From Aduncisulcus paluster (taxonomy: Eukaryota), in assembly GCA_024181965.1 (NCBI GenBank), contig BQXS01009951.1, positions 1-39,035 on the forward strand: 39,035 nt of DNA, written 5' to 3'. Position numbers and translations under genes: made by a program. The notes beneath the pieces are model-generated. The model was not told where the DNA came from. It saw only the letters and a program-made list of their open reading frames with translations, and did not search any database. Shown in pieces: positions 6,691-30,897 of this stretch (positions are counted from its first letter, which is position 1; every line of letters begins with the position of its first letter).

Positions 6691-7062
6691 TTATTTACCA
6701 ATCCCTTTTGATATGGCTTTTCTAATATCTTTTCTATCAGCAAAACAGATGGCTTGATGTGCTTTTCTTATAGAACCGGCAATGTGAATAACAATAGTTG
6801 TCTCATCAAAGGCACATTTCTCTTGAAATATCGATTTAAAATATTTTGTTTGTTGAGCCGGGCAGCGAACCATCAAAGTTCGAGTATCCTCATTGAAATA
6901 TTTCAGCGCCATATTTTCACATTGCAAACTGACCAATTCTCCATACTTATTCTTTATAGCATTGAGTAATCGAGATCTAACCGATAAGGGTGAATAGACA
7001 TGCCGTTTTGAGATTGAATCCATAATTCGAACAACAATATATCTATATTTAAATCTTACCAT
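6691..7062 (-). CDS. POP5: RNase P/MRP subunit Pop5 (Rpp14/Pop5 family), 123 aa
   Basis: ATG at 7062 gives the family-typical N-terminus MVRFKYRYIVVRI. Also has LMVRCP and C-terminal VIHIAGSIRKA (family motif xSGTIKK). The longer ORF-track start is non-ATG and adds non-homologous sequence. Confidence 0.88.
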   Translation of the reverse strand: MVRFKYRYIVVRIMDSISKRHVYSPLSVRSRLLNAIKNKYGELVSLQCENMALKYFNEDTRTLMVRCPAQQTKYFKSIFQEKCAFDETTIVIHIAGSIRKAHQAICFADRKDIRKAISKGIGK

Positions 7063-7266
7063 TATCAATAATTCTACGAAATGAGAAATGTCCCCAAACC
7101 ACAATATTATCATAAGTCCGAGTATAGACCATCCAGATAAGATCGAATAACAATATGTTATTCTAAATATAGTTATAATTGAATATCCAATATCTCTTAT
7201 CAACAATATTGCTACCTCATTCAAAGGGAAAATTCAATCAAGCTTTCCTTCGGATTGCGGACCAAA

Positions 7267-10080
7267 ATGGATTCATTAAATCCTATAATCCGAAGTATAT
7301 TTCAAAAGAAATTCTTTATAGACCTGACTCCTGTTCAAGCAGCAACGATTCCTCTCTTTTTACAAAACTATGATGTTAGTGTTGAGGCCGAAACTGGGAG
7401 TGGAAAAACTCTTGCATTTTGTGTTCCAATCGTTCAAAGACTTCTTAAATTGTTGATGGATCACAACATACCAAAAGAGAAAGTTAGAATGGATGGGAAA
7501 ATTACCCCCAGTCTCCAAGATCAACATAGAATCAATGTATTTAGTGTTATTATGGTTCCCACTAGGAGTTTAGCTGATCAAGTATACAAAGTGTTATCCA
7601 AGCTTATTGCTTGTCTTCCCATTTGTGGTGGTGCTTGTTGTGCTTGTGGTCTTGGACCTATAGTTGGAGATGTGAAAGATATGAAGAATATTATGGATAT
7701 GAGATACAATCAAATGGAGGAATTACAAGAAAAGGATGGAGAAGAGAGTGCTCTTTTGAAATTCAGAAAACGAAAGGTTCAAAAGAAGCTAAAAACCTTT
7801 CTATCTAGAATCACTCTCTCAAATACAACTCCTATTTCAAAGAAATATTCCAATACTGATGAATACCCCCTTGTCCCCCCTGTATCATCGGTTTCTCATG
7901 GTCAAACAGACTTGATCATTGTGACGACACCAGGACGTCTGAAATCCTTAATTTCCATATCATCAGCCCTCATTAAGAAGTTTCCAGGCCAATCTGTTGA
8001 TGAAGAAACATCAAGTCGTGAGAGAGAAGCTCAGCTCCTCCTCACACGTTCTCCCATCTCCTTGTCCTTCCGCTTCCTTCAATGCGTTGTTATCGATGAA
8101 GCAGACCGAATGCTTGCTGCAATGATGCATGTTCGTGAAGTTTTAAAAGTTCTTCCCTCCCAACGTCGAACTGCTCTTTTCTCAGCCACTCAGACTCGTG
8201 ATGTACAAGATCTCATTAGAGCAGGCATGAGGAACATGAAAAGTATTCGTGTGGTGAGAGAAGATGATGGCGCGGAGGTAGATCCGAAAGAACCTCTGAA
8301 AGAATCGGCTGAAGGAAATGAAGAGGAATTTGAGGAAGAGGAGGAAGAGGAAGATGAAGAAGAAGAGGGATCTACTCGAGAATTGGCCATTCACAGATTG
8401 TCAAAGGCCATTAATATGTCTCTCCCCTCATCCTTGCATCTTTCAATGCATCAGATTGATGAATGGAACCGTGTCGAATACATAATCGATCTTGTCAAGC
8501 AACATTACTCCCATTCATCTCCAAGTGACATAAAACACCAGAGAATTGTTGTGTTTGTGTGTTCTCGTGCCTACGCCGATTACATTGCAGAGGCCACCAT
8601 TCGTGTGATTGGCGACATAGAAGCTCGTCTTGTCAAAGAAGGGAATGATCACTCCCCATTCCACCTTCACGTTGATACCCTTCATTCTTCTCTCTCTCGG
8701 AGGGTTCGTAACAAAGTCCTCGATCGTTGGACACAGCCTTATAATCCAAAAGATTCTTATTTGCACTCTCACTGTTCTCTGGAACTACTACATGGCAAAA
8801 AGAAGTCAAAGCAAAATATTCCTTCTTTATTTGTCCTATTCACCTCAGATATTTCCGCAAGAGGAGTTGATTTTGTTGACGTTGATAATGTCATCCAATT
8901 GCACCCTCCAAAGTCTGCAGATTCATTTATTCACAGAGTCGGAAGAACAGCTCGTGCAGGCCGTGAAGGAACTGCCACTTTCGTTGGTTCAAAAACTGAA
9001 TGTGAAAGTTTCTCAAAGTTGTTAAAGAGGGAGAAAGATGTGGAATTCGATGAAGAGAAAAGTCTATTTATAGATTCTAATGTACATGAATTGAGAAAGA
9101 GACTTACACGTGTCCAAGATCGCCTTGGATCTCAGATGAAACAGTTGAAACAACTGGGCAAACGCATGAAGAAGAGGACTCATGAACTTGAGAAAAGTCA
9201 GAAAAAGAGCAAGAAATGGATGTTAAAAAGTGGAATATCTAGTGACGAAGTACATCTATTGCAATCTCAAACATCACACGGGGAAGATGCCACATTATCT
9301 GCACTCCAAACTCAGGCGGCTTCTCTCTCCTCCTCTTCCTCCTCTTCTCTTTCTCATTCTTCCGTGATATCACTCATGAATCAAGGATATGTCCAACTTC
9401 AAAAGGTTGTAGCAGATAAAGAGAAGGAGGAAAAGGAAATTATTGAGTCCTTACGTGATTCTATCTATTTGAAAGAAGTCAGTGTTCTCTTGCGTCATGC
9501 TCAGCTTCACAATAATCCCCCAACCATTGGAAATATCATCACATCATCATTTCCGCTCAGTCCTGAACCAGGGAGTTCATTCTCATCAAACACATTCCTC
9601 TCAAAGACTCAAGCTGCCTTTGTTTCCCTCTTCTCTTTCTATTCCCATCATCCATTTTTAGGCATTCCCATTGACTCTGCGGGACTCACTGCGATGGCAC
9701 ATGGATGTGTATATCTCCCTAGGCTCAAGGAGCTCGCCAAAACCTATGTTGTGTTTCGAGAAGGGGAGGAAGTTGAAGAGAGGCGGAAAGAGCGGAAAAG
9801 CAGGGGCGAACAGAAGAGAGATGAATCTTTTGAAGGCGATCTAAAGAAAAAACGGTGGAAAAAGAAGGAAGAAAAATGGGCCGAAGTGAAAGAAAAAAAG
9901 AAAGAGAAACGAGAGAAAGAAGAATTTGGGAAACGGAGATTTTTGGATGAAGCTGAAAAAGAATTCCTTGATGATGCTATATTCTTGAAAAAAATGTCAA
10001 GAAGCGGAAGAAAAGGAAAGAAGGGGAAGAAAACACAGAATTCAAAAGCTAAGCAATTTGACAGAGAAATTGGACTGTAG
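7267..10080 (+). CDS. SPB4: DEAD-box RNA helicase Spb4/DDX55 (60S biogenesis), about 937 aa with long insertions
   Basis: Q motif and motif I TPVQAATIPLFLQNYDVSVEAETGSGKTLAF (Spb4/DDX55-typical), PTRSLA, TPGRL, DEAD, RRTALFSAT, ARGVD, FIHRVGRTARAG. C-terminal extension AFVS..YSHH..LPRLKEL and a K/E-rich tail. Confidence 0.9.
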   Translation: MDSLNPIIRSIFQKKFFIDLTPVQAATIPLFLQNYDVSVEAETGSGKTLAFCVPIVQRLLKLLMDHNIPKEKVRMDGKITPSLQDQHRINVFSVIMVPTRSLADQVYKVLSKLIACLPICGGACCACGLGPIVGDVKDMKNIMDMRYNQMEELQEKDGEESALLKFRKRKVQKKLKTFLSRITLSNTTPISKKYSNTDEYPLVPPVSSVSHGQTDLIIVTTPGRLKSLISISSALIKKFPGQSVDEETSSREREAQLLLTRSPISLSFRFLQCVVIDEADRMLAAMMHVREVLKVLPSQRRTALFSATQTRDVQDLIRAGMRNMKSIRVVREDDGAEVDPKEPLKESAEGNEEEFEEEEEEEDEEEEGSTRELAIHRLSKAINMSLPSSLHLSMHQIDEWNRVEYIIDLVKQHYSHSSPSDIKHQRIVVFVCSRAYADYIAEATIRVIGDIEARLVKEGNDHSPFHLHVDTLHSSLSRRVRNKVLDRWTQPYNPKDSYLHSHCSLELLHGKKKSKQNIPSLFVLFTSDISARGVDFVDVDNVIQLHPPKSADSFIHRVGRTARAGREGTATFVGSKTECESFSKLLKREKDVEFDEEKSLFIDSNVHELRKRLTRVQDRLGSQMKQLKQLGKRMKKRTHELEKSQKKSKKWMLKSGISSDEVHLLQSQTSHGEDATLSALQTQAASLSSSSSSSLSHSSVISLMNQGYVQLQKVVADKEKEEKEIIESLRDSIYLKEVSVLLRHAQLHNNPPTIGNIITSSFPLSPEPGSSFSSNTFLSKTQAAFVSLFSFYSHHPFLGIPIDSAGLTAMAHGCVYLPRLKELAKTYVVFREGEEVEERRKERKSRGEQKRDESFEGDLKKKRWKKKEEKWAEVKEKKKEKREKEEFGKRRFLDEAEKEFLDDAIFLKKMSRSGRKGKKGKKTQNSKAKQFDREIGL

Positions 10081-10156: not shown

Positions 10157-13100
10157 TCAAATAAATTCTTCGATTTTCTCTCCAGATACCTTTTCAACAG
10201 CATTTTTGAGCTTAAAGGAAGCTCTTTGAATATCCTCATCTTCATTCTCAAGAATATCTCCAACAAATGAACTTATTGAGGGCATTATCTGTACAAATTC
10301 AAATCCTATAGATAAAAACAAGGAAGCGAAAAGCTCTAACCAACTTATTCGGACCACCTTCCCAAATTCAGACCTTTCATCAATCTGCTGAACAGCTTCA
10401 AGGCTATTCTCTGCAAAAACACTCCATTGTTTGTCAGCAGATGTTCCCATCGAAGTTAATAACCTCTTGCACAGATATGACAAGCATTTGGAAATGTGAG
10501 ACACGGTGAAGGATCCAAATTCATCAAAATTGAAAGATTTAGAGAGGTCAAAATCACGTCTATAAATAGAAATTGAGTTAAACATAGTATATGGTGATAT
10601 AATAGCAGGTGAAGTGAGACAGGGAATGATATATTCAGTGACCTTTCCAAATGATTCTTCGTTGAGCCATTTCCCTTCCTTGTCTTCGTCGCACAACACA
10701 AATAGCAATCTCAATGAGCACATAAAACACCACAGTTCCTCCGAAGCAGCCTCACCCTCAGGCAAAGGATATCCCCGAATAATGTGCCTCTTTGAGTCCT
10801 TATAGGAAACAATATGGGACAGAGATTTTGTCATGGAAATAAGAGATTCCTTTTCTTCCTCATCTTTCTCGTGCTCCTCCTTGAATGCTGTTGGGAAGAA
10901 AGACAGTGATACAGGAAGAAGGTCCATGATAAACTCACTCAGAACAAGGATGGACTCACGACTGATCTGTGCAACAACGACAAAGACCTCAAGCATCCAA
11001 GAGAGTAGAGAGAGCTGAACAACACCTTTCTGTTTTCTAATAAGCTTTACAACCTTACCTACTCTTCGCTGGATTGAACTATCGATCGATATCAGTCCCC
11101 CAACAATATTTTCATTAGCACTTTCGGAGATAATCCTTCGTTTTCCAGTTGCTTCCACTTGTGGTTCATTCCATCCACCACAGAGAGACACAGCAATCAT
11201 CCTGGCAAACAACTGTGCGGCTGCCGAAGGAATGCCTGCAATAGAATTATATCCATGGCTCATATCAATCTCTTTTATCCTTTGTTGCCCCCCTGCAAGA
11301 GCTATTCTCATGAAAGAATCACTATACTGTTTTAACAGGACAGGTTGAGAATGGAGATGGGAAACAAGGGGAAGCAAAAACAAGGGAATTGTCAAAACAG
11401 CAGTTTTCTCGTCTAACTCTTGAACAATTCCAACAGAAACAGAAAGAATAATATGTGGAGGGATGAGTTCAAAAATAGATTTGAGAAGAGATAAATATAG
11501 ATCAGAATTAAATCCAATTAAATGATTATATGTCAAACAAGAACGAAGAATCGAAGGAACAAAGGATGAAAAATATGTAGAATAAAGTGATATCAAGGAA
11601 TTCAATACGGTAATAGAAGATATTTCCAAGCGATTTTCACCTTTTCGCTGTTTCCGAACATTCTTTGAAGATCTACGAACAACCATCACACGTGAAACCT
11701 TTTCTTCTTCCTCTTCCTCTTCCTCTTCTTCCTCTTCCGTCTCTTCCTCTTCCTCTTCTTCCTCTTCCTCTTCTTCCTCTTCCGTCTCTTCCTCTGCTTC
11801 AGATTGGGTGTTTTCAAGGATAAACACACATTTGTTCACAATAAATTGGAGAGAAGGAAGAACACACTGACGAGGGACAATGAGACAAGACTCCAAACAT
11901 AACAAGCAGGAAGTCATGATATCAATTTCTTTAATTTCCTCGGCAATCAGGAACACAGATGACACAAGAGAAAGAATTCGCCTCAGGAAAAATACAGAAC
12001 AAACACCACAAATATTCTTCGCCAAAAGTTGGAGAACGAGAAGATTTAAGATGATCTCAGCAACAGAAAGGGCTGACGCTCCCCGAATACTTTGACGATC
12101 ATGGCATTTCTGGATTAATGGACAGGGGATGAGCTCGGATTGTTTTGTATACGATTCGTTAGACCTTGAATATCCCAACAATTTCCTTTCAATTGTCTCA
12201 AGAATAGCAAAAGCAGTACCATTCATTCCATCAAAACCACCTCTCGCCCAAGTTGGAGAATAATTGGCTGGAATGTTCAAGATACCTTTTGGAGATCCAA
12301 TTTGAACGCTTCTATCTCTGGATTTCCGGGCCAAAAATAGCCGAAAATCTTCAATAACATCGTCTTCCCTGCCCTGTTGTTTTAAGATCTTCTCCATCTC
12401 CTTGATATGCTCGACACTGTCAGAAGAAGATATTTTTGATGGGTTCATTGTGCCCTTATCCATGACACGAATACCATTTGAGGTCGTAAGATCAGAGAGA
12501 GCGGAAATAAGCAGATTTGTGAGACATAATAAGGATTGGGGATTCGAATTATGAAGTTTCTCATGTTGTCTATATATAGAAATAATAGAAAACATAACTC
12601 TATGAGGTTTTAAAACACTTTCGAGAATATGAATAATCTCTTTGGCCTCAGAGGAATTTTCCTGAGCGTATATAAATAGACAATGAGAAAGAAGAGAGAG
12701 AGAAGGAGAGAAAAATGTCAACTGCTGATTGATCTGCATTTCAAGGAAATCGGCACCATGCCCCTTGGAACTTTCTCTCTTCTCTTCTTTTTCTGATTCC
12801 TTCAATAACAGCTCTTCCCTCTTCTTACGCTCTATTTCTTCCTCAGAGGCAATTTCTTCCAACGAATGGGCCAAAATAGCATCATTATTGATAAAAGTCC
12901 GAATAAATTCCAATATAGAACCAGAGAAAGTTCTAAAAATAGAATAATATTCCCCATGACCATTGCTATTTCCCGAGAAACAGTGCATATACTCCCTAGC
13001 TATCATATGAGTCTTCTTCTCCCCCTTTTGCATCACAAATATTGGCCGCTCTTTCTCTTCTGAAGCACACCCCGAACACAATATTTCCAAACACTTCACG

Positions 13101-15217
13101 GAGAAAGAGGAAGGGAGAAGAGCGATCAGAAAGGCCAAAGAAGAGGATAATGGCTCAATACAAAGAACATGGTCTTGCTTCGCTTCGATACGAGANNNNN
13201 NNNNNNNNNNNNNNNCTATCATATGAGTCTTCTTCTCCCCCTTTTGCATCACAAATATTGGCCGCTCTTTCTCTTCTGAAGCACACCCCGAACACAATAT
13301 TTCCAAACACTTCACGGAGAAAGAGGAAGGGAGAAGAGCGATCAGAAAGGCCAAAGAAGAGGATAATGGCTCAATACAAAGAACATGGTCTTGCTTCGCT
13401 TCGATACGAGACAAATAATTCTTCCTTGTGATAACAAGTGCTTTGACAAGAGAACCCCAAATAGCCACCTGAACATCCTTGCCGAGATCTTTAGCAAAAG
13501 TGACGACACCCTCACAGACGCACTGAACATTCTCAATTGTGACGCATTTAGAAAATAGTTGAGAAAGAAGATCTGAGAAACAGAAAGAGGATATATAGTG
13601 GAGAAAACAAATATTTTGGCAGGATAATGGTTCAACAAACGCTTTTCCCGCAATGATATCAATTATTACATCAATATCTTTGGAATTTCCATGTTTAACA
13701 CCTTTCAAACTCTTGGAAATGAGTTTAATGATCCCAGTCCAAGACTTTGAGGCCCAAATCGACACCATGTCCTTGCAGAACTCCATAGAAGAGCGCAAAT
13801 GTTTGTCCACGAGTGTGGACAATGTCTTGAAAACCGATTGACCAGACATAGAAGAGACAGAAACAGATGTGTGGGTGAGATCATATAAAGAAGTATCAGA
13901 AAGAGATGATGATACGATTCCATGCTTTTGGAAGAGTTTTTTTCTCTCTTTCTTACGCTCATCAACTATTCTCTGAACATTTTGATCAGATTTGGCAAGG
14001 GATTCGAGTTCCTTCATTTCTTCGATTCTCTTTTGAATCCCATGTTTAGATCTGTCAACAAAACTTCCCATCCTCTCCTTTCTGAGTTCTTCCATCCTCT
14101 TTCTTTCCTCTTCAATCTCAAGCCGAGACAACACACGACCATCATGACGAACTGACCCAATTGAGAAGCTCGGATATAATTGTTCAGGGACAAGATTCAC
14201 CATGAATTCTCTCCGGCGTTCATTATAATCTTCCTCTTCCTCTTCCTCTTCCTCTTCCTCTTCCTCTTCCTTTGCCTTCTCTCCCACTGAACCAAGGGGG
14301 ATGGAAAGTTCAATCCGATGCATTTCGGAAGAAGTGGGGTTAAAAATATCCATAATTGCCAAACAAAGAGATATGGTTGATAGATATTTATGAGGAAATA
14401 ACTCCGATATAGGGTTATCTTGGGAAGACAGAGATCTTTGAATATCCTGGACAAGTTGCCATACTTTGTTGATAGCACCGCTCCATATTCCTACACGATC
14501 GCAATCAAGCTGACGAATGGCACCAACAATAGCACTAGATACAGGGGAAGAGGAGGAGAAAACGAGAGAGAGCAGGAGTTCGAAGGAGGAAGTGGAGGTA
14601 CTGACAGTCGATAGATCAAGCAAAAGGAATAAAAATGGAAGTGTTGAGGCCTCTGGTAAATATTTTTGAACGATTGGTGGATTATCTTTCGGGTGAATTG
14701 GGAAAGAAGAATAAAAGCCTTGAGAGTGCATTTTACCAGAAACAACCCTATTAGCGAAATGAATAGCTTGTTTGTGATACGGGTGCGAATCTTTTGTGAA
14801 AGCAATTCTTAGAAAGTTAACGGAAGAATTCATAAGAGTTTCAGAAGAACATAAAGCATTAATAACACGAAAGGTACAAAGGAGATCGGGAGAAAACCAT
14901 TCTAATATTAGCAAGGTTCTGATTGGGATCGTTAAATCATCAATAGAACATGTATTTTTAGGGAGAAGTAGAGAAACTATGAGAGACTCATCAAATTGAG
15001 ATTCTATCTTTGAAGCTAAGGCACACATCAGTGTATGAGCAGAAAGTACAAGCGATTGATGTAACTTTACCTTCTTTTGAACTTGAATCCCTGGATTTAG
15101 ACATAACTCAATCCAACGAATAACATTCGGTTGAATTTGGTGGGGTTTTTTCATAACTATCTCTCTCAAGAGATTTTTTGTTTGGGTAGCCACAGATTTA
15201 TGCGTTAATTCCATCAT
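10157..15217 (-). CDS. UTP10: U3 snoRNP/SSU processome HEAT-repeat protein Utp10/HEATR1-like (about 1614 aa after collapsing the gap duplication)
   Basis: Large Leu/Ser-rich helical protein. The C-terminus IMPSISSFVGDILENEDEDIQRASFKLKNAVEKVSGEKIEEFI matches the Utp10/HEATR1 ending (LLPE.IPFLAEL.EDE.EEVE...LE.VLGE.L..Y). The N-terminal part is too divergent to recognise, so the start is uncertain. Confidence 0.75.
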   Translation of the reverse strand: MMELTHKSVATQTKNLLREIVMKKPHQIQPNVIRWIELCLNPGIQVQKKVKLHQSLVLSAHTLMCALASKIESQFDESLIVSLLLPKNTCSIDDLTIPIRTLLILEWFSPDLLCTFRVINALCSSETLMNSSVNFLRIAFTKDSHPYHKQAIHFANRVVSGKMHSQGFYSSFPIHPKDNPPIVQKYLPEASTLPFLFLLLDLSTVSTSTSSFELLLSLVFSSSSPVSSAIVGAIRQLDCDRVGIWSGAINKVWQLVQDIQRSLSSQDNPISELFPHKYLSTISLCLAIMDIFNPTSSEMHRIELSIPLGSVGEKAKEEEEEEEEEEEEEDYNERRREFMVNLVPEQLYPSFSIGSVRHDGRVLSRLEIEEERKRMEELRKERMGSFVDRSKHGIQKRIEEMKELESLAKSDQNVQRIVDERKKERKKLFQKHGIVSSSLSDTSLYDLTHTSVSVSSMSGQSVFKTLSTLVDKHLRSSMEFCKDMVSIWASKSWTGIIKLISKSLKGVKHGNSKDIDVIIDIIAGKAFVEPLSCQNICFLHYISSFCFSDLLSQLFSKCVTIENVQCVCEGVVTFAKDLGKDVQVAIWGSLVKALVITRKNYLSRIEAKQDHVLCIEPLSSSLAFLIALLPSSFSVKCLEILCSGCASEEKERPIFVMQKGEKKTHMIXXXXXXXSRIEAKQDHVLCIEPLSSSLAFLIALLPSSFSVKCLEILCSGCASEEKERPIFVMQKGEKKTHMIAREYMHCFSGNSNGHGEYYSIFRTFSGSILEFIRTFINNDAILAHSLEEIASEEEIERKKREELLLKESEKEEKRESSKGHGADFLEMQINQQLTFFSPSLSLLSHCLFIYAQENSSEAKEIIHILESVLKPHRVMFSIISIYRQHEKLHNSNPQSLLCLTNLLISALSDLTTSNGIRVMDKGTMNPSKISSSDSVEHIKEMEKILKQQGREDDVIEDFRLFLARKSRDRSVQIGSPKGILNIPANYSPTWARGGFDGMNGTAFAILETIERKLLGYSRSNESYTKQSELIPCPLIQKCHDRQSIRGASALSVAEIILNLLVLQLLAKNICGVCSVFFLRRILSLVSSVFLIAEEIKEIDIMTSCLLCLESCLIVPRQCVLPSLQFIVNKCVFILENTQSEAEEETEEEEEEEEEEEEEETEEEEEEEEEEEEKVSRVMVVRRSSKNVRKQRKGENRLEISSITVLNSLISLYSTYFSSFVPSILRSCLTYNHLIGFNSDLYLSLLKSIFELIPPHIILSVSVGIVQELDEKTAVLTIPLFLLPLVSHLHSQPVLLKQYSDSFMRIALAGGQQRIKEIDMSHGYNSIAGIPSAAAQLFARMIAVSLCGGWNEPQVEATGKRRIISESANENIVGGLISIDSSIQRRVGKVVKLIRKQKGVVQLSLLSWMLEVFVVVAQISRESILVLSEFIMDLLPVSLSFFPTAFKEEHEKDEEEKESLISMTKSLSHIVSYKDSKRHIIRGYPLPEGEAASEELWCFMCSLRLLFVLCDEDKEGKWLNEESFGKVTEYIIPCLTSPAIISPYTMFNSISIYRRDFDLSKSFNFDEFGSFTVSHISKCLSYLCKRLLTSMGTSADKQWSVFAENSLEAVQQIDERSEFGKVVRISWLELFASLFLSIGFEFVQIMPSISSFVGDILENEDEDIQRASFKLKNAVEKVSGEKIEEFI
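11703..11794. repeat. (TCTTCC)n-type microsatellite encoding a poly-Glu tract in UTP10
   Basis: Read directly. Similar tracts at 14229-14270, 24528-24610, about 8330-8370 and about 34020-34045. Confidence 0.9.
13000..13411. repeat. Gap-flanking duplicate: 13000-13195 = 13216-13411 around 20 Ns (assembly overlap artefact)
   Basis: 196 bp identical on either side of N13196-13215. The offset of 216 keeps the frame. Confidence 0.93.
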
Positions 15218-15447: not shown

Positions 15448-16006
15448 TCATTCAGCACTACTAGCTTTCTTATTCTTTTTGTGATGTTTCTTATGTTTTT
15501 TCTCACTATGTCTTCTTTTTCCACTTGATTTTTCCTTCTTTTCATCCTTTCCTTCTTTTTTCTTTTCTGATTGTTTTTCCTTTTTCTCAGATTTGGAATG
15601 CTTTTTCGATTTTTCAACTTGTAGGGATTTTGACTCCATGGCCTTTCCCTCATCTTCAACAATAACACTACTTTCAATGTGAATACAGATAGTGGCGGTT
15701 GCATCAAACGAATCATCCGCCACAAACTTACTCGAAGATCCAGGTTTTGGACATACAGCTAAATATTGGTTGGAGATATCTTTGTGATCAGGAATGATAT
15801 CATATTTCTTGCCTGATTTTCCTTGTATAGTAACAGACTCCCCTTTTAACAGTTTTTCATAATCAATATCCTCATTTCTGAAATCAGATACGGATATCTT
15901 TGGAGAGTGAAGGAAGTTGTAAAATTTGAAAAAAAATAGCAAAAGTAAAATGAAATAATATTTTACATACAATTTTTGGAACTCGGAAAAGTACCTTAGC
16001 TTCCAT
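15448..16006 (-). CDS. RNA polymerase I subunit A34/RPA34 (PAF49)-like, two exons 16006-15971 and 15897-15448, 161 aa
   Basis: Spliced product MEAKVLFRVPKI|ISVSDFRNEDIDYEKLLKGESVTIQGKSGKKYDII...YLAVCPKPGSS...FD resembles the A34 dimerisation domain (lWli+.P..vdis.l....d ... Y.I ... ll.P ... fd), followed by the A34-typical Lys-rich tail. Confidence 0.55.
15898..15970 (-). other. Spliceosomal intron, 73 nt, phase 0, GTATGTAAA...CCAAAG
   Basis: T-rich. Removal joins an ATG-initiated 12-codon exon in frame to the downstream ORF, which has no plausible ATG of its own. Confidence 0.75.
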
Positions 16007-16179
16007 GGTCACGAAACAATCGATTTTCGATAATGTTTTGATCTTGGGATTTTCGAGAAGGAGTAGATAATAAATAAGAGAAATATGAACAAAACATCAA
16101 TATTTATGCGATTTTAGTCCAATAGAAAGTGATATGATTGGTGATTTATACAAATCGAAATCCAATCGAGTTTGTAGCG

Positions 16180-17448: not shown

Positions 17449-18081
17449 ATGGAACATTTTAAACCAAAACACTCATATGATAGAGTAAGATATCTATGTA
17501 AATCATATATTGAAAAGAGTAGTGCAGGTACTTATGGCCGTGTTGATTCGCCAGTTACACGAATGCTCTTCCAGTTTGCAAAGGAGGTCGAATTATCCAT
17601 TTCTCATCTTAAAGCAGAACATAAAAGACTCGAAAAGAAATTAAAATATAAAAATCAAATTGTTGACCAATGGGAATTGATGTTTGGAAGAGGTTATGAG
17701 TCTATTGAAAAAGACACTCTCGATGATCTTGAAATGAAACGTTTTCTCGCTATCCCGGCAACTGAACTCCCTCAAGATGCATATGAGAAATTGTATGGCA
17801 AAAGTGCACCCACTCCTGCTGATATTCTTGAATCACTTGAGAGGAAAAATCGAGAAATCCAAACTGGCCAGGCTGTTATATTAGAGCAACAAAAACGAAT
17901 CCAAGAACTTGAAAGAGATTTGGACTCAGCCCATAAAAGAGCAGAACATTATGCCAAACGAGTAGCATCACAATTCGCTGAAGAGGCTATTACAGCTATG
18001 CATAAAGATTTATCGGATATTTATGGTTTAGAAGAGCAACAAAAAAGAGAATTAAAAGCTGAAATCGACGTCGATAAATAG
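17449..18081 (+). CDS. Hypothetical coiled-coil protein, 210 aa
   Basis: ATG-initiated ORF bounded by AT-rich spacers, with two predicted coiled-coil stretches. No family recognised. Confidence 0.8.
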   Translation: MEHFKPKHSYDRVRYLCKSYIEKSSAGTYGRVDSPVTRMLFQFAKEVELSISHLKAEHKRLEKKLKYKNQIVDQWELMFGRGYESIEKDTLDDLEMKRFLAIPATELPQDAYEKLYGKSAPTPADILESLERKNREIQTGQAVILEQQKRIQELERDLDSAHKRAEHYAKRVASQFAEEAITAMHKDLSDIYGLEEQQKRELKAEIDVDK

Positions 18082-22000: not shown

Positions 22001-22769
22001 ATGGAAACATGAATGGGAACGTGAGAAATCAAAGAACTTATCAACTGATGGATCATGTCCAGCCCCTCCGGTCCCTCCTTCTCCCTATACTATTGCTCTC
22101 TCTGTATACTCTTCCTCGCCACATTTCATCCTCTATCTCCGACTTATCTTCTCTCTCTCGTTCTTCTTCTGTTCATCATGCAGTCGTGTTACTTCAATTG
22201 CTGATTATTTCTTGTGTTCTACGAATATTCTTCACTGTGTCGATAGCTCAAAGGAGAGTGTTGTAAGATCTGATATTTTCTCGGATCCATTGACATCTTT
22301 TGATTCAACACCTAATCCTGCTCTTTCACTGTCAAAGACACTCACAATGCTGTCTATATCATCGATGCCCATCGCCTTAGCAAAGAGAATTGGCCTTATA
22401 TTTCCTTTCGTATTTAAACAGCAAATTGTTGAAGGACAAGAAAAAGATGTTGAAACTGACGAATCCGTTGGTATTTTTTCAAATCCGACCCCATTTTCGA
22501 CTCCATTTAGTTCTTCTGCTCCCAAATTAACCCATTCTCTCTCTTCTTCCTTCTTCCCCCTGTTGAAAAAGATGTCCTCTCCCAATATGTCCTCCAAACA
22601 AAGGAAGCATTATCTGATATCCCTTTCTCACTCTTTGGATTCCAAGGAAATGGAGAAGATGAGGAAGAAACTTAGACAAAAAAGGCAAGAAGGTGAAGGA
22701 GAGAGGGAAATTATAAAGAAATATGATAAATTTCACCCGTATAAAGTATTCATCGGGAAGAGAAAATGA
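19076..22769 (+). CDS. SANBR/KIAA1841 (DUF3342)-like SANT + BTB protein, exons 19076-19084 and 19221-22769, about 1185 aa
   Basis: N-terminal SANT/Myb repeat WTSAMDERL...FWLRVSRRIPGTSPATCCSRW. KIAA1841 motifs LHVKDD...EMGYF, IDISIHCDVAVF, NVTPVLISSSFLDM, then CxxC...VDIHG...H...W and a second CxxC. Confidence 0.8.
19085..19220 (+). other. Spliceosomal intron, 136 nt, phase 0, GTATGTTTT...TTCTAAT...TTGTAG
   Basis: Removal gives MNH|FLWTSAMDERL, supplying the first conserved Trp of the SANT/Myb repeat. Branch-like CTAAT at 19200-19204. Confidence 0.75.
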
Positions 22770-22838: not shown

Positions 22839-23258
22839 TATAGTATAGTATTGTTTAGTACAGTAATCGAATAGAACACAACAGTTCGTTTTATTCATAT
22901 CAACGTCCTTTTGAAATTTTTTGTCTATTGTATGGAGTATTCTACAATATTTTGATCTGATCAACTGCATTTGCTAAGTTTGTACCAACAGAAGCCTTGA
23001 TACTATCCTTGTCTTGTAAAATTAGACATACATTTCCANNNNNNNNNNNNNNNNNNNNTATAGTATAGTATTGTTTAGTACAGTAATCGAATAGAACACA
23101 ACAGTTCGTTTTATTCATATCAACGTCCTTTTGAAATTTTTTGTCTATTGTATGGAGTATTCTACAATATTTTGATCTGATCAACTGCATTTGCTAAGTT
23201 TGTACCAACAGAAGCCTTGATACTATCCTTGTCTTGTAAAATTAGACATACATTTCCA
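22839..23258. repeat. Gap-flanking duplicate: 22839-23038 = 23059-23258 around 20 Ns (assembly artefact)
   Basis: 200 bp identical on both sides of N23039-23058. Confidence 0.93.
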
Positions 23259-25331
23259 TCCTTGTCGAATGGTTGAATGATTCTTTCTTTCGGAGATTCT
23301 GACGATTGAAGGAATGAGCATAGAGTCTCAACCAAATCAGAACAAGGAGAACCTTGAAGATACACTCCTTCTTTCTCAATAATAACTAATTTGGATGATA
23401 ACTGCGAATAAACTAATGAATTTAATTCCTCTTGCATCCGTGGATTACTTATCTTATCAAGGATAACGTCAATTCTATCAAATATTGTCTGAGAAGGTGC
23501 ACAGGGATGTTTGGATGAGGGAATAACGAGAGACAGGAAGGAAACATCACCCCTGGAACTTTCATATATATATGCATGCTTCCCTCGTATAAAAGGGGCT
23601 GCACACAGAGGTTTAGAAGATGTATCCGAACAAGCCTGGACTGAAGCATCTTCCTTGACATAACTTGACAATTTCTCACTTGAATGGATAAAGATATTGT
23701 GAGAGAAGGAGTCAGAAATAAGGTGCTCTCTTGCATCAGAACAGGATATTTTCCCGCTGAGATCCTCTTGATATTCACGTTTGGAATGGGAGAAATGGAA
23801 CATGAGGCGAGAAATCGAGGGTTGTGATACACTTGGGAGCAATAGAACATCAGAAGGTGTCACAGCAGTTAATGTTGATGATATAGATAAAGGAATAGAG
23901 CAAGAAGGAAGAAGATGATCATGAATAAAGATGCGAGATCTTCTCTTTGAAATATATTCTCGTTTGGGAAGTGTCTGCTCTGATTGACGCACTAATCCAA
24001 AGTAACTAAGACAATCTTTAAAATCTATGGTGAATATTGACTTCGAGGGAATAGATTGATGGGAATAGTACTTCTCAAAGAGCTGTTTTTTCCAGCTATG
24101 GTAAAGCAAAAGCTGGAAGATCGAAGGGCCTTGAGCCTTGAGTAACTTACCTTTCCAAAGTAGAATGGAACAAATACATTGAGAACCTATAATAGATCCA
24201 AAAATAGATTGAGAAGAAGCAAAAAAAGATTGTAATATTTCCAAAGAAAAAGAAATATTGTTGGAAATTGTTGGAATATGGCACAAAAATAATGAGTCAT
24301 GTTCTTCAGGTGAATACTTAGCAATAATCTGAATTTCATCCTTTTCAATGATTGTTATCTTTTCTTTAATCAGCCCAGAGAGATACTCCAATATATCATT
24401 AAATTGTTGGAAATGTCGCGCAAAAGAAATGGGAGGAGAAGAACGGAGATTTCGCTTAACAAACTGAATTGCATGATGCTTCTTCCTTCTTTCCTCTTCT
24501 TCAACTTCTCGGATATCATCCATACGATCTTCTTCTTCCTCCTCTTCCTCTTCTCTTTCTTCTTCTTCTTCTTCTTCTTCTTCTTCTTCCTCTTCCTCTT
24601 CTTCTTCCTCTCCTTTTTCTTGACTTGGTATATCTTCGGTGAGATTTCCTTTGAGTTTTTCCGCTTCTTTGAGGGATTCACTTTCAATAATAAGGGTTTC
24701 TTCTTCTTTTTTAAGATATTTAATTCTTTGTTTTTCAACAACAGATCTTTTAATTTTTGATAAATGCAACATTGAGATTGGAATTCCACTAATTGCAAAA
24801 GAATACGATACAAGAATCCCAAAAGATTTTAAAAGATATCTGACAGAACTACTCACAGAAACATGGAGTTGGACAGGAGTAATGGGTAACGATTTGATGA
24901 TTTGCTCTTCAATTGTTGGAGAAAATGGTGCAAATAGGGGTAATAAATAAATGCCAAGAGAAGAGTTGGAGAGAAAGAAATATGAACATAAAATAAGTTT
25001 ATGGGTTGGTAACTTTGACAAATATGCACTTTCAATAATAATTCCTGTCGGTAATACATCAAATATAATATAATTTGCGGTATCGCTCTTGTGATATACA
25101 TTTTCAACGATACGGGAAGACGCTGATTTTATGGCAATAATAAGTCCAGAAAATAAAGGAGATTTAATTGTTTTGAATGGATAACAATATATTGGCTATA
25201 TAATAATAATAAAACATGAGATAAACCGGGAGTGAACTATAGTATTTACAGATTTAAAACACCGGTTAACATACTTCACTGATTTCTTTTTCATTTGCAT
25301 TTAGATCAAATACTAAAAAAGAAGGTTCCAT
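23162..25331 (-). CDS. Probable CCZ1/INTU/HPS4-family longin-domain protein, exons 25331-25275 and 25195-23162, about 696 aa
   Basis: The spliced N-terminus MEPSFLVFDLNANEKEISE|PIYCYP...FSGLIIAI resembles the first longin domain of this family (F.iy......E....I.yyyP ... G). CSILLWKGKLLKAQGP resembles the second longin. The CDS is well supported; the family call is tentative. Confidence 0.5.
25196..25274 (-). other. Spliceosomal intron, 79 nt, phase 0, GTATGTTAA...TATATAG
   Basis: Joins a 19-codon ATG exon in frame to an open frame continuous with ORF 23162..25021. Confidence 0.8.
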
Positions 25332-25431: not shown

Positions 25432-26700
25432 TTATTTGTTTACGTTCATTCCAACACCAATGACTCCAAGAATAGCTGTAATTCCTGCGATTAATCCAAT
25501 CGTAAGCTTAAATGGGTCCATTTTCTTTTCAGGAACCTTCAAAGATATCTTTTCTCTTGGTCTTTCCTGGAAACAAGGTGGCATCACCCTCTCTCTTTCA
25601 GTTAATTTGGAAAATAAATTGATAGCATCCATTAATTTGGAGATATGTTTTGAATAATCTTTAAATAAAATACCCTCAGAGCTGACTTGTTTCTTGAAAT
25701 CTTTCCATTCTTTCAATAAAATAAGTCCATGATCCCCTTTTGATTGCTCATATTGTTTCTCAAGAACAGTAATACGTTTTCCAAGTTGTTCAAATTGTGG
25801 AAGAATAAAAGATTTCAAAGATTCACTAATCTGTTCTTCTAAATCTTCTCTATCATCCTCCAATACTTTTTCTAGTGTCTTTTTCTCTTCATCGAAACCT
25901 TGTTTCACGATAGAGGCGATTGATTCATCCCCAAGGACAATATGGAGATTCTGCAACGATGTTTGTATATCAAGGAGAGTGGCTCTATGCTTGGCATCAA
26001 ATTTCAATTTTTCAAGCTGCTCAGTTAGTTTTTTTGACTTTTCTCGTTCATTTCGAATCTCCTTCTCTTTTTTTTGTTTCTCATCTTTCATTTTTGAAAT
26101 CATTATTTCAAGTCTCTTAACTTTCTCTCTAAGTTCATCTCTTTCCCGTTTTATCTTTTCAATGTCATGAAATGCGTCGTGTTGAAGGGACTGAATTCCT
26201 GAAGGGGAAGAAGATGAACGAGAAACGAGAAGATCGGAGTCATGATGAATAGAATCACTCATTGGAAATCCAAAATTCTTTGATCCGGCACGCTTAAGGC
26301 GAACAGTAGTTCGTAATTGTTCTGAAAAATGTCCAGAAACGGCGAGAGTTGGTGTTTTCGGTGTTCCTGGAGAACTGAATGGAGGATGATCCATCTCACT
26401 TCCAACAGAGGGATCAATTGATGAAAATGCATGAGATGTAGATATGGAGGGAGTGGTTGAGAAATTGGTATAAGCTTCGATCACACAGTCAATACAATCA
26501 CGGACACGATCCAAAGGTTCAAACTCACCAAATACATATTCCTCGCTAATTACATCGAGGATTTCTTCGGGGGTTTCTTCAATATCACTTGGTAAATAGT
26601 ATTTTATGATTGCAAGAAGGTTGGATTTGGCTACAGTATTATTTGATAGTAAAAACCCTTGTTCTCTTAAATATGATTCTATTTCTTTGTCTTTTTCCAT
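25432..26700 (-). CDS. Tail-anchored coiled-coil protein, 422 aa
   Basis: Acidic helical N-terminus, S/P-rich linker, long coiled coil, and a single C-terminal hydrophobic segment LTIGLIAGITAILGVIGVG followed by only 5 residues. Confidence 0.8.
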   Translation of the reverse strand: MEKDKEIESYLREQGFLLSNNTVAKSNLLAIIKYYLPSDIEETPEEILDVISEEYVFGEFEPLDRVRDCIDCVIEAYTNFSTTPSISTSHAFSSIDPSVGSEMDHPPFSSPGTPKTPTLAVSGHFSEQLRTTVRLKRAGSKNFGFPMSDSIHHDSDLLVSRSSSSPSGIQSLQHDAFHDIEKIKRERDELREKVKRLEIMISKMKDEKQKKEKEIRNEREKSKKLTEQLEKLKFDAKHRATLLDIQTSLQNLHIVLGDESIASIVKQGFDEEKKTLEKVLEDDREDLEEQISESLKSFILPQFEQLGKRITVLEKQYEQSKGDHGLILLKEWKDFKKQVSSEGILFKDYSKHISKLMDAINLFSKLTERERVMPPCFQERPREKISLKVPEKKMDPFKLTIGLIAGITAILGVIGVGMNVNK

Positions 26701-27068: not shown

Positions 27069-27809
27069 TCATTTTGATTCAATGGAGGAAGATCTCTTTT
27101 GTGGACGATACTTGGTTTCTCCGTGCCTTTCTTTTCCACGACTACTGGATCTTCGTTTCCATTTTTGACGTTTTTCTTCTTCATCATCACTAAAACCTTC
27201 CTCGCCTTCTTCATCGTGAGCATTACTTGCGTCAGTAAATTTTTCTTTTGAGAGCTTTTTCAAGTCAACTGTACTATCTGAAGAATGTCGGACATAGAGG
27301 GTTTCCCCAACACTAAAATCCAATTTCTCAATGTCTGAAGGGTTAAGATATCGCAATATATAATGAGGATGATCGATTGGACCAAATACATCACATATAA
27401 AGCCAATACAATGATAAAAATAATCCGGAATGGATGAGGATATCGAAAGGGATTGAGGTTCTTCAGAAGGAATGGATGAAATCGGAGCATCTTCAGGATT
27501 TTCTTGAGAAGAAATTATTTTTTCGTCTTCTTTATCGGGATTTTGAACTTTATCATAAACAGGTTCCCACAATTGATACGGAAGTCCTATTCCTTCTATA
27601 ACAACTGTATTGTGGACAAAATGTTTAATATTACCAAGAATATGCAATTTTTGCTTTGATTCATCATGAATATCCATATCTTCTGGTATAGATGAGAGAT
27701 CAACTATATCTGGGAGAGCCTCATGTAAAGAACGAACAATAAGTCCTTTTTCATTTTCTATCTGAACATTAACAATAAATTCATCGGAAGATTCAGATTC
27801 TTCCTCCAT
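27069..27809 (-). CDS. NAF1: H/ACA snoRNP assembly factor Naf1 (Gar1/Naf1 family)
   Basis: LGNIKHFVHNTVVIEG, IGFICDVFGPIDHPHYILR and the Naf1-specific TDASNAHDEE...FSDDEEE motif. First ATG at 27809. Confidence 0.9.
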   Translation of the reverse strand: MEEESESSDEFIVNVQIENEKGLIVRSLHEALPDIVDLSSIPEDMDIHDESKQKLHILGNIKHFVHNTVVIEGIGLPYQLWEPVYDKVQNPDKEDEKIISSQENPEDAPISSIPSEEPQSLSISSSIPDYFYHCIGFICDVFGPIDHPHYILRYLNPSDIEKLDFSVGETLYVRHSSDSTVDLKKLSKEKFTDASNAHDEEGEEGFSDDEEEKRQKWKRRSSSRGKERHGETKYRPQKRSSSIESK

Positions 27810-27949
27810 ATATCTCACTCAACTTGGATTTCAAATCAAGTTGATTTGGGAGGAGTAATAGGATAGTGTGATTTTTGTAAGATTGATGAGGCACGCGGAA
27901 TAAGGAGAAATATTTATTATTGATGATGATTATTTTGTTGATATTTGAA

Positions 27950-28573
27950 TTACTTTACATGGATATGAAGAATATTAGATGCCGTTTTTCTTTTGAATAT
28001 TTTTCCACTTTTACCAACTATCACATTCTCTTGACTTCTATCGCCTGTTGTTTCATCTATTGGAACGACAAGAAGTTCCCTGTCGATATCGATACTCGAC
28101 AAAACTCCGCATTCTTTTGGTTCAATTGATAATAATGCTCCTCTACGATCTCCTAATGATAGGACATACGCACGAACCTTGTCTCCAGGGTATAAAACTT
28201 GATGAAGCTTCAGCTCATCTGTATCTTCTGAAATTGAATGAGGCTTTATCCGACCAAGAGGAGCATTGGGAGGCAATGAAATAAACTTAGGAAGTGGATA
28301 TCCATCAATGTGAGATATTGAAACAATTGATTCAACCCTTGATACCGATAAAACAGTTCCGATCACTAAAGCCCCTGGATATAATCTTCTAAGATATGAT
28401 AATGAAGGCAATACTGATATAAAGATATCTTTTGATTCATGTTTATATATTTTTTGAACAGTACCGGCAATTGTTGCATAAATAAAACCATCTTCATCTA
28501 ATCTCGTATTTTCGCCAGGTGTATCAGGTATTTTACCAACAATATCACCTGGTAACACAAATTCAATTGACAT
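27950..28573 (-). CDS. CSL4: Exosome cap subunit Csl4/EXOSC1
   Basis: VLPGDIVG...IYATIAG (N-terminal domain), PGALVIGTV and PGDKVRAYVLSLGD..LLSI...GV (S1 domain), C-terminal SGKIFKRKTA. Confidence 0.9.
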   Translation of the reverse strand: MSIEFVLPGDIVGKIPDTPGENTRLDEDGFIYATIAGTVQKIYKHESKDIFISVLPSLSYLRRLYPGALVIGTVLSVSRVESIVSISHIDGYPLPKFISLPPNAPLGRIKPHSISEDTDELKLHQVLYPGDKVRAYVLSLGDRRGALLSIEPKECGVLSSIDIDRELLVVPIDETTGDRSQENVIVGKSGKIFKRKTASNILHIHVK

Positions 28574-28732
28574 GAGTCAAATATCAGATTGATTTCCTGA
28601 AAGAATCGTCAAAAAAAAGGGAAATCAATATCCATTTCTTGGCGTTGCCTCAAATAAATATCTTTCCGAATCATAAATTCGATTATAATAACAATCAAGA
28701 TTCAAGAGAACCCTATATCATTTATTTTCAAC

Positions 28733-29550
28733 TTAGAGGTTAAGTTTAGCCTTGGAATCAGCTTCCTTTCTAATAGCAGCTTGAACCTTAGCAATCTTGT
28801 GCATAGCCTTACCTCCCAAAACTGGTTTACCAACTTGACGTCTCAAGGTAGTGTAAGAACTCTTGGCCTTGATAGCATCGATAACAGTTTGGAGCTCAGC
28901 CTCGTGCTCGGGCTTCACGGAGGAGAAAGCAACACAGGAAGCAGTTTTCTGGTGAACAAGCTCTCCAAGAAGAGACTTAGACTTGATGATGGCGCAAGTG
29001 ACACCAACACGCTGACAGAGAGCAGGCATCCACAAAACAAGCTATTTAACAATATCATAAAAAATCAATATAAATAAATGGAAAATGAAATACAATATAA
29101 AAAATAACAACTAAATTAACATACTTCAAGAGGGACAACATCATGAGCAACAAGAACAAGCTTGGCTTCTTTCTTTTCAATGAGGTTAGTCACGTTGTGG
29201 ATTCCGAAACGGAGGTATTGGGGGGCAAGAGTAGTAACCTCAGATTCCTTAGAAGCTTGGGCAAGACGAGCCTTCTTTTGGGCGACAGTCTCAGGAGAGT
29301 ACTTGCGAGCAAGTTTCACAATGTTAGTTCTGAGATTCTTGTCAACTGGATGACGGAAAACGTTAATCTGTCCAGGGACCTTCAAACGAGAGTTAAGGAT
29401 CTTACGTTGACGTTGGATACGGATGTAACGAGGCCATTTGACGTAACGGGTAAGATCACGCTTAACAGGAACGGCTTGACCAATACCAAAGTGACGGGGC
29501 TTGGCAGTAAACCTCACTTTTTGAATTTCTTTAGGGACCTTAGCACACAT
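28733..29550 (-). CDS. RPL7A: 60S ribosomal protein L7a (eL8), exons 29550-29125 and 29041-28733, 244 aa
   Basis: FGIGQ..KRDLTRYVKWPRYIRIQRQRKIL..RLKVP, KYSPET, AKLVLVAHDVVPLE|LVLWMPALC, IIKSKSLLGELVHQKTA. Confidence 0.97.
29042..29124 (-). other. Spliceosomal intron in RPL7A, 83 nt, phase 0, GTATGTTAA...AAATAG
   Basis: Removal restores the conserved eL8 peptide DV.P.E|LV..lPALC exactly. Confidence 0.95.
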
Positions 29551-29712
29551 TTCTTTCTGCTTCGCTCTCTAGACTGCGAAATCAAGAAAGGAGTGAGTGG
29601 AGTTGTTGATCCGAAAATAGCAACATGAGAAAATATCACATAATCGCTAAAATGATTATCATGTGGGTAAAATTAATAGTATTTTTTTATTTATCGCAGG
29701 TTATAAAACATT

Positions 29713-30897
29713 TTGAAGCCTGTCAAAACACTCCCAAGTATTCCCAAGTGTATTACTGATGAATTTGGAAGTTTCATTGATTCTCTCATCATTAGAATCG
29801 AAACTGGAAATATTCATGGTCTATCCGAAGAATGGAAAATATTTTCTTTAAAAAATGATGTTTATCCGGAGTATTCTTTGGGTATTTCTCGACTTACATT
29901 TTTGGTTAATATGATTGCCTCATCGATATGTGATGTTAATATTTTACATGAAGGAATCTCGTTTATTATATTAATTTTTTTGATTATTCAGGAACAGCCA
30001 TATTTGCCCAAGATACTCCCAATCATTTCTCATCAATATATTTTGGGATTTTTGAAAATTAAAGAGAATTATAAATCCTTTTACAAACCTTTTTTTGCAG
30101 AAAAATTAACCCATGAGTGTTCTGAAAGAATGCTCGAGNNNNNNNNNNNNNNNNNNNNAGAATGGAAAATATTTTCTTTAAAAAATGATGTTTATCCGGA
30201 GTATTCTTTGGGTATTTCTCGACTTACATTTTTGGTTAATATGATTGCCTCATCGATATGTGATGTTAATATTTTACATGAAGGAATCTCGTTTATTATA
30301 TTAATTTTTTTGATTATTCAGGAACAGCCATATTTGCCCAAGATACTCCCAATCATTTCTCATCAATATATTTTGGGATTTTTGAAAATTAAAGAGAATT
30401 ATAAATCCTTTTACAAACCTTTTTTTGCAGAAAAATTAACCCATGAGTGTTCTGAAAGAATGCTCGAGTTCTTTGGATGTACTGTCGTTGGATGCTTAAA
30501 TTTAATCCAATTTGGAACTCCCTTTGATGATAAAAGATTATCACGGGCTTCTTTACTGTCAATCCATATAATGAAAGCTATTCAGGATTTTGAAAATGAC
30601 AAGTATTCGGATTATCATCTAGATTCAAAATTTGTTGATCCTTCTCGTTTATTGCCATATTTTGATGAATTAAGCCAAACTTCAATCTCGAAACATATCT
30701 TGAAAACCAAGGAATTTGCATCTTTTCACTTGGATGATCTTTCAAGACGAAAAGGGTACTCTGAAATGTATGAGCCTCTGAGATCAAAAATTTTCCAGGG
30801 TCAAAAGAGTTTACCTTCTCTTTTGGATTATCGATCTGGGTTTGATGAGTTTGAAGATACTGAGGATTTTTTATTGGAATTTTTGAAGATTAAATAA
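29713..30897 (+). CDS. Hypothetical protein, weakly SNAPC1/SNAP43-like; true start unresolved (probable short upstream exon); contains a gap duplication
   Basis: Long open frame (about 284 aa collapsed) without an early ATG. The pattern ..F.....L...W........hydrophobic helix IILIFLIIQEQPYLPKILPIIS resembles SNAP43 LY.LY.TQP..P..kI.i. Confidence 0.4.
   Translation: MKPVKTLPSIPKCITDEFGSFIDSLIIRIETGNIHGLSEEWKIFSLKNDVYPEYSLGISRLTFLVNMIASSICDVNILHEGISFIILIFLIIQEQPYLPKILPIISHQYILGFLKIKENYKSFYKPFFAEKLTHECSERMLEXXXXXXXEWKIFSLKNDVYPEYSLGISRLTFLVNMIASSICDVNILHEGISFIILIFLIIQEQPYLPKILPIISHQYILGFLKIKENYKSFYKPFFAEKLTHECSERMLEFFGCTVVGCLNLIQFGTPFDDKRLSRASLLSIHIMKAIQDFENDKYSDYHLDSKFVDPSRLLPYFDELSQTSISKHILKTKEFASFHLDDLSRRKGYSEMYEPLRSKIFQGQKSLPSLLDYRSGFDEFEDTEDFLLEFLKIK
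29829..30468. repeat. Gap-flanking duplicate: 29829-30138 = 30159-30468 around 20 Ns (assembly artefact)
   Basis: 310 bp identical on both sides of N30139-30158. The offset of 330 is in frame. Confidence 0.93.

Follow-up and report, generated by a model that had tools for sequence, protein, structure and literature searches.

The adjacency of ribosome biogenesis (Ribi) genes is so far known mainly as pairs in fungi. In yeast, 15% of the rRNA and ribosome biosynthesis (RRB) genes are organized in adjacent pairs of every orientation, and the paired genes show tighter co-regulation (Arnone et al. 2012, PMC3500266). In the same study, strings of three are uncommon and comprise about 3% of genes, the single string of four consists of the MAL genes, and no significant pairing between RRB and ribosomal protein (RP) genes is reported. 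Conserved divergent pairs in fungi, namely RRP3-SSF1 and UTP17-RPABC5, appear in a table of Davila Lopez et al. 2010 (PMC2871058). In archaea, POP5 is found beside RPP30 in an operon together with proteasome and exosome genes (PMC4919917; PMC2588523). Here we analyze a scaffold of 39,035 nucleotides (nt), termed “the window”, from Aduncisulcus paluster, a free-living fornicate and relative of Giardia among the deep-branching metamonads. Positions 6691-30897 of the window (~24 kb, termed “the block”) harbour what we read, with a probability of roughly 0.5, as a real and unusually dense neighbourhood of ribosome synthesis and stable-RNA processing genes, which represents an enlarged case of the known Ribi-gene adjacency in any orientation. 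Literature searches retrieved no report of clustered Ribi genes for Giardia and related organisms, and the A. paluster genome announcement is silent on gene clustering (PMC9933649).

The lists of open reading frames (ORFs) yield 14 genes for the block, in agreement with the initial annotation of this DNA. Eight of these genes, or nine if RPA34 is counted, belong to a class involved in rRNA or stable-RNA synthesis or processing, which comprises Ribi, ribosomal protein, RNase P, exosome, small nucleolar ribonucleoprotein (snoRNP), RNA polymerase I (Pol I) and Orn genes. The initial annotation had placed ten of the 14 in this class, a number that was overstated, since its SNAPC1 fails every test and its RPA34 is sub-threshold. 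Seven predicted products have secure identities: Pop5, Spb4/DDX55, Ssf1/PPAN, Orn/REXO2, Naf1, Csl4 and RPL7A (eL8). The anatomy of the block is established, at numbers somewhat below the first claim, and its co-regulation is putative. The class genes, together with an orphan ORF at the right end, are the following (aa, amino acids; E, expectation value):

6691..7062 (-): Pop5, RNase P/MRP protein subunit; PF01900 Rpp14/Pop5, E 8.4e-10
7267..10080 (+): Spb4/DDX55-type DEAD-box helicase, 60S subunit biogenesis; 937 aa, long inserts, basic tail
10157..15217 (-): probable UTP10/HEATR1, very large and helical, with acidic inserts; carries the N gap 13196-13215, flanked by an artificial duplication of 196 nt
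15448..16006 (-): RPA34-like small protein (tentative), 161 aa with a Lys-rich tail; exons 16006..15971 and 15897..15448, intron 15970..15898
16180..17214 (+): Ssf1/PPAN, Brix family, 60S biogenesis; Brix domain 2.6e-29
18244..18903 (+): oligoribonuclease Orn/REXO2; RNase_T 3.3e-15
27069..27809 (-): Naf1, H/ACA snoRNP assembly factor; PF04410 Gar1/Naf1, 3.1e-7
27950..28573 (-): Csl4, exosome cap subunit; ECR1_N 8.4e-7
28733..29550 (-): RPL7A (eL8), two exons; 83-nt intron 29124..29042 (GTATGT..AG)
29707..30897 (+): orphan ORF, earlier called SNAPC1-like; carries the N gap 30139-30158, flanked by an artificial duplication of 310 nt

From left to right, Pop5 (-), Spb4 (+), UTP10 (-), RPA34-like (-) and Ssf1 (+) are followed by a 210-aa coiled-coil protein (+), Orn (+), a BTB protein (+), an unassigned protein (-) and a membrane-anchored coiled-coil protein (-), and then by Naf1 (-), Csl4 (-), RPL7A (-) and the orphan (+). 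The run of five from Pop5 to Ssf1 claimed previously stands if RPA34 is accepted and otherwise falls into three plus one. At the right end, a run of four had been proposed that included the SNAPC1-like gene; as SNAPC1 is without support, only the three genes Naf1, Csl4 and RPL7A are left. An Orn homologue does lie between both runs (18244..18903; match to human REXO2, 3e-30), and the cluster genes are indeed unrelated in sequence.

Like the yeast RRB/Ribi pairs (PMC3500266), the genes in question serve one pathway, are unrelated in sequence and are immediate neighbours with short intergenic regions; two divergent Ribi-Ribi pairs are present, one of them via the tentative RPA34. Unlike the yeast pairs, the block has three to five genes in a row and then three more. 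Moreover, its ribosomal protein gene adjoins Ribi genes, in contrast to yeast, for which no significant pairing of RRB with RP genes was seen. The yeast phenomenon is defined by co-regulation and genome-wide enrichment, whereas the block is characterized by gene identity, order and spacing. The likeness extends to the conserved divergent gene pairs of eukaryotes (PMC2871058), which also are functional partners transcribed in opposite directions with a short promoter region in common. The main text of that report names none of the pairs Pop5-Spb4, RPA34-Ssf1, Naf1-Csl4 or Csl4-RPL7A.

Family searches bore out most of the firm gene calls made earlier, the exceptions being the sub-threshold RPA34 and the unsupported SNAPC1. 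The Pop5 ORF is open to 7113, and the family match starts at its second Met (MVRFKY...); from this inner Met, PF01900 is matched with an E of 5.8e-10 over profile positions 1-103 of 104. The product of the adjacent helicase gene contains DEAD and Helicase_C domains (Pfam), and its top solved chain is yeast Spb4 (1.3e-29, 106 bits), with DDX18/Has1 close behind (99 bits). The domain PF13959 is present in all 120 homologues among the matches listed, and it was undetected in the query protein itself by the Pfam scan. Specific names among these 120 homologues are DDX55 or DDX55/SPB4 (15) and plant “RNA helicase 18” (18), the latter of which we take to be the DDX55 orthologue; none of the 120 is named for another helicase. 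For Ssf1/PPAN, the only three matches among solved structures are PPAN (1.2e-25), a Brix protein and Ssf1.

The gene at 10157..15217 probably encodes UTP10/HEATR1. As criteria for this family we used a C-terminal HEAT repeat at the protein end, a length of about 1600-2100 aa and an all-helical structure; once the artificial duplicate is removed, the predicted protein is ~1614 aa long. It gave no Pfam match, even when E values as high as 10 were allowed for the last 399 aa, where U3snoRNP10, HEAT_HEATR1 and BP28CT were sought. A word-index search returned no homologue and one spurious poly-Glu match (P0001), and the eight matches of the C-terminal 1012 aa to solved structures (phmmer) included none of relevance. 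The last 150 aa weakly match (E 0.38) residues 1641-1767 of the 1769 residues of yeast Utp10, which is the only natural protein they match. In a language-model search of the ESM-Atlas, ranks 1-10 of those listed are HEATR1/UTP10 clusters (0.94, 164 shared features). The identity is considered probable because these two independent weak signals, the C-terminal alignment and the ESM-Atlas ranking, agree. As a separate observation, long poly-Glu tracts are inserted in the UTP10-like protein (10157-15217), the helicase (7267-10080) and the protein encoded at 23162-25195, and they cause spurious database matches.

The assignment of the neighbouring small gene (15448..16006) to RPA34, the A34.5 subunit of RNA polymerase I, is tentative. 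Its exon model is identical to the deposited protein P0002, and the top Pfam match of the full protein is PF08208 (RNA_polI_A34; E 0.0064), whose 17 bits fall short of the required 31.7. The alignment is co-linear from the N-terminus, pairing residues 6-83 with profile positions 8-85, and the Pfam match is gone when the 12-residue exon 1 is omitted. Neither the full protein nor exon 2 alone matched a solved structure, the searches found no homologue other than the protein itself, and a single-sequence fold model is unusable (predicted local distance difference test, pLDDT, 46.9).

Downstream in the block, the gene at 27069..27809 encodes a predicted protein that is closer to Naf1 than to Gar1. 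Its top solved chain is 2eqn, “LOC92345” (2.2e-4), presumably human NAF1, followed by archaeal Gar1 at 0.08; the solved-structure listing includes no eukaryotic Gar1 chain, and the translation has no RGG tracts. Csl4 matches human CSL4 at 1e-5 across residues 3-160, and nine of its 11 matches are Csl4 or exosome cap chains. The two exons of RPL7A hold positions 9-45 and 48-90 of the L7Ae profile, such that the intron divides the L7Ae domain; the Rpl7a gene of Giardia also has an intron. A metagenome relative shares 45% identity (E 3e-32), and a metagenome scan with exon 1 yielded two loci from 252 candidate stretches, one of them a 1.2-kb contig and the other a prokaryote-like contig that matches only weakly. 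Between the two runs, the Orn gene matches 24 Orn/REXO2 solved chains in all. Rex2, the yeast homologue of Orn, trims stable RNAs, and we count Orn as a borderline member of the stable-RNA class.

The orphan at 29707..30897 has no in-frame ATG ahead of 29911. Its earlier designation as SNAPC1 is not supported in seven tests: neither protein part matches the SNAPc SNAP43 family of Pfam, there is no match among solved structures, the Atlas search yields scores under 0.9, for fragments that are importin-like, and 1.84 billion representatives gave 0 matches. The pLDDT of its fold model (36.5) is too low for use.

The spacers in the runs Pop5-Spb4-UTP10(-RPA34-like)-Ssf1 and Naf1-Csl4-RPL7A measure 76-230 nt. 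Naf1, Csl4 and RPL7A are arranged head to tail with spacers of 140 and 159 nt, and the two divergent pairs flank the following regions:

7063..7266: divergent intergenic region between Pop5 and Spb4, 204 nt
16007..16179: divergent intergenic region between the RPA34-like gene and Ssf1, 173 nt

Since the divergent starts are only ~204 and 173 nt apart, the Pop5/Spb4 and RPA34-like/Ssf1 pairs can each share one promoter region, and 7063..7266 would serve as a bidirectional promoter for Pop5 and Spb4.

The reliability of the gene order depends on the assembly. The A. paluster draft genome (29.4 Mb, 39.1% GC) is a short-read MaSuRCA assembly of 25,863 contigs with an N50 of 4.6 kb; it comprises 15,316 predicted proteins and 11,743 introns, and its BUSCO completeness is 40.4% (PMC9933649). 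The window is eukaryotic and uses all three standard stop codons, and the deposited proteins are identical letter for letter to six of ten ORF models looked up. The genes are closely packed, with intergenic spacers of 76 to 392 nt. The introns are short, and each starts with GTATGT and ends with AG:

15898-15970 (-): intron, 73 nt
25196-25274 (-): intron, 79 nt
29042-29124 (-): intron, 83 nt

Four gaps of 20 N are found in the window, three of which (at 13196, 23039 and 30139) are located inside the block:

13000-13411: gap and duplicate zone around N gap 13196-13215
22839-23258: gap and duplicate zone around N gap 23039-23058, which lies between the Pop5-to-Orn half and the Naf1-to-RPL7A half
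29829-30468: gap and duplicate zone around N gap 30139-30158

Beside these three gaps lie exact duplicates of 196, 200 and 310 nt, respectively, the left suffix being equal to the right prefix. Each duplicate occurs in exactly two copies in the window, and at the two gaps that fall within ORFs the reading frame carries on at both sides. The in-block gaps are unmerged overlapping contig ends, and the joins look sound. The three N-gap joins, which the initial annotation had marked for confirmation, are therefore supported, because each gap sits between exact overlaps that occur only at those two places. Gene prediction ran across the unmerged duplicates, and accordingly the predicted proteins contain artificial internal repeats of 65 aa (UTP10-like) and 103 aa (29707-30897 orphan).

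How far the density of class genes exceeds chance was estimated from binomial tails and from simulated genome scans under random gene order, in which the class fraction p is an assumed range. For a given interval of 14 genes, the probability of at least eight class members is 1.7e-9, 8.9e-8, 6.6e-5, 2.4e-3 and 3.2e-2 at p=0.03, 0.05, 0.12, 0.2 and 0.3, respectively. Among 2000 simulated genomes of 15,316 genes at p=0.05, none contained an interval with at least eight of 14. A value of 0.12 is a rough yeast-like figure for the broad class; with 6000 genes at this p, the fraction of genomes with such an interval is 0.157 for at least eight and 0.0145 for at least nine members. If the calculation is confined to the ten genes with any family assignment, eight or nine of which are in the class, the probabilities for eight and nine of ten are 1.6e-3 and 1.4e-4 at p=0.3, and 7.8e-5 and 4.2e-6 at p=0.2. 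Under these models, eight or more of 14 would be very unlikely by random order if the class makes up at most 12% of the genes, and would be expected only if it reached 20-30% of the local background. A low background p is favoured, because 15,316 predicted proteins make a class of a few hundred genes a few percent, and because the window is no general housekeeping stretch.

A number of points weigh against the interpretation as an enlarged Ribi-gene neighbourhood. The class fraction p is our own estimate, the class is broad and was defined after the genes were seen, and the window was chosen from a very large scan. In simulations with 2000 “core” genes, intervals with at least eight of 14 class members appeared in 0.78 of the genomes at p=0.2 and in about 1.0 at p=0.3. 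The identities of UTP10 and RPA34 are based on sub-threshold evidence, and four to five unrelated or unassigned genes break up the block. Finally, yeast Ribi genes have the promoter elements PAC and RRPE in common, whereas here, among words of 6-8 nt, none set the seven class upstream regions apart from eight controls, a comparison of low power in which only AT-rich words were found in both.

These points bear in particular on chance aggregation, according to which the block is one tail of random gene order, noticed through many windows and a broad class defined post hoc. Chance draws support from the yeast-like background, under which 16% of random genomes contain an interval as dense as this one, from the absence of an upstream motif common to the class genes, and from the fact that two of the ten earlier gene calls failed to hold. 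Yet with 15,316 proteins the class amounts to a few percent, the corresponding probabilities are ~1e-9 to 1e-7 per interval, and 0/2000 simulated genomes contained such an interval; even among the ten family-assigned genes, at least eight class members have a probability of 1.6e-3 (p=0.3) or 7.8e-5 (p=0.2). Accordingly, we regard chance as rather unlikely, but as an explanation to be taken seriously. The clustering of housekeeping and essential genes is well established, and the block could belong to a general island of core genes, whether housekeeping, essential or highly expressed, e.g., in stable chromosome cores that give rise to long scaffolds, with ribosome-related genes as the largest core class. 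Like the block, housekeeping clusters place broadly or highly expressed essential genes side by side without sequence relatedness, and a scaffold of 39 kb in an assembly with an N50 of 4.6 kb is compatible with this idea, as long scaffolds may favour unique, conserved sequence. Such clusters mix functions, however, whereas the identifiable genes of the window nearly all act in one pathway. Pfam scans of the 18 window genes retrieved no metabolic enzyme, kinase, GTPase, chaperone, proteasome subunit or translation factor, and the genes outside the class encode orphan proteins, coiled-coil proteins, a single BTB protein and a single membrane protein with EGF repeats. Because other housekeeping classes were not found in the window, a general housekeeping island is disfavoured and appears improbable.

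The assembly itself might have joined unlinked contigs at the N gaps, such that the runs would not be true neighbours. This concern is fed by the four 20-N gaps in a short-read MaSuRCA assembly and by the position of gap 23039, which parts Pop5-to-Orn from Naf1-to-RPL7A. The exact duplicates at the three in-block gaps, found only at those places, and the frame that continues through the two gaps within ORFs make such an artefact very improbable, and were the 23039 join wrong, each half would still keep its own run. A still more distant prospect is descent from the archaeal exosome/RNase P/proteasome superoperon via the eukaryotic ancestor. Koonin et al. 2001 reportedly described this conserved gene neighbourhood, and the initial annotation had drawn the parallel. 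As in the superoperon, RNase P protein, exosome and ribosome-related genes are linked in the block, and Pop5, the Brix protein, Csl4 and the L7Ae-family protein have archaeal counterparts, homologues being present in both arrangements. The parallel nevertheless fails on the defining features. The archaeal superoperon is co-directional and includes Rpp30, Rrp4/41/42 and the proteasome alpha subunit; Pfam scans of the window ORFs retrieved no Rpp30, no Rrp4/41/42 and no proteasome subunit, and the strands are mixed. Three eukaryote-only genes separate Pop5 from the Brix gene, Csl4 is 11 kb away from both, and most block members (Spb4, UTP10, Naf1, RPA34-like) are eukaryote-specific, so that a relic is hardly credible. 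The best reading is that the block constitutes neither an operon nor a remnant of the archaeal superoperon.

Returning to the block as an enlarged case of Ribi-gene adjacency, short promoters shared by the divergent pairs, combined with a common local chromatin state, would lead to tighter co-expression of the cluster genes, and the proximity of the genes would be kept by selection. Co-expression through proximity and the maintenance of this proximity by selection are what we infer from gene identities, order, spacing and sound joins. A more far-reaching version posits a selected, co-regulated “nucleolar gene island” that extends well beyond the yeast pairs, is conserved among Carpediemonas-like organisms and is controlled by bidirectional promoters in common use and by a single chromatin domain. 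In that case, the orphans among its members, i.e., the RPA34-like protein, the 29707-30897 orphan and the 210-aa coiled-coil protein, would represent nucleolar or Pol I/III factors specific to the lineage, which could be found by position alone. This version is doubtful.

If genome-wide enrichment holds, the block would be a new, larger form of a known gene arrangement; if not, it is a well-annotated piece of a draft genome. A block of eight to nine such genes in a metamonad, provided that it survives a genome-wide test, would indicate that the principle is older than the fungal pairs suggest and reaches beyond pairs. The arrangement, if true, would also allow very divergent nucleolar proteins to be annotated by their position in a lineage in which searches by sequence fail; in the window, ordinary family searches missed UTP10, the RPA34-like protein and the orphan. 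Furthermore, growth-control elements of fornicates could then be sought in a defined collection of short promoters.

The remaining genes of the block are interspersed between the class genes from Ssf1 to Naf1:

17449..18081 (+): coiled-coil protein, 210 aa; sub-threshold Pfam noise only, outside the class count
19239..22769 (+): SANT/BTB (SANBR-like) protein; PF11822, 4e-8, outside the class
23162..25331 (-): protein without a Pfam family; exceeds a 536-aa ORF, frame open to 25195
25432..26700 (-): coiled-coil protein, membrane-anchored at its C-terminus; no family assigned

The longer gene at 23162..25331, whose 3' part is the 536-aa ORF, likely begins with a first exon of 19 codons (25331..25275, MEPSF...), followed by a 79-nt GTATGT..AG intron. 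Searches for non-coding RNA in the window gave 0 Rfam matches and 0 genes in the tRNA scan.

The flanks of the block had been ascribed to expanded surface-protein families. This holds for a single gene, which encodes an EGF-repeat, Cys-rich membrane protein, whereas the rest are a coiled-coil protein and unassigned proteins. On the left, a coiled-coil protein (2-6286, +) that is longer than 2094 aa runs off the end of the window; its match to SF-assemblin/beta-giardin is weak (E 2.7e-4, below the cut-off), and the product may be a cytoskeletal fibre protein. On the right, the fourth gap (33288-33307) has imperfect duplicates of 54 and 191 nt at its sides, at offset positions. It is located just before the end of ORF 31369-33375, which overlaps the start of ORF 33372-36329 by 4 nt, and the two ORFs may be one gene cut by this gap. 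The only surface-protein-like gene of the window is located at 37224-39035 (-). Its product is rich in Cys (8.8%), carries EGF and teneurin-like repeats, and has a single membrane span as well as a basic tail. The adjacent convergent intergenic region (36330-37223) carries two tandem doublets of the 13-mer TTCTAAAAATAGA at 36767-36794 and 37164-37191 (+), 400 nt apart. With one mismatch allowed, TTCTAAAAATAGA has six matches in the window versus 0.29 expected, a number reached in 0/100 shuffles.

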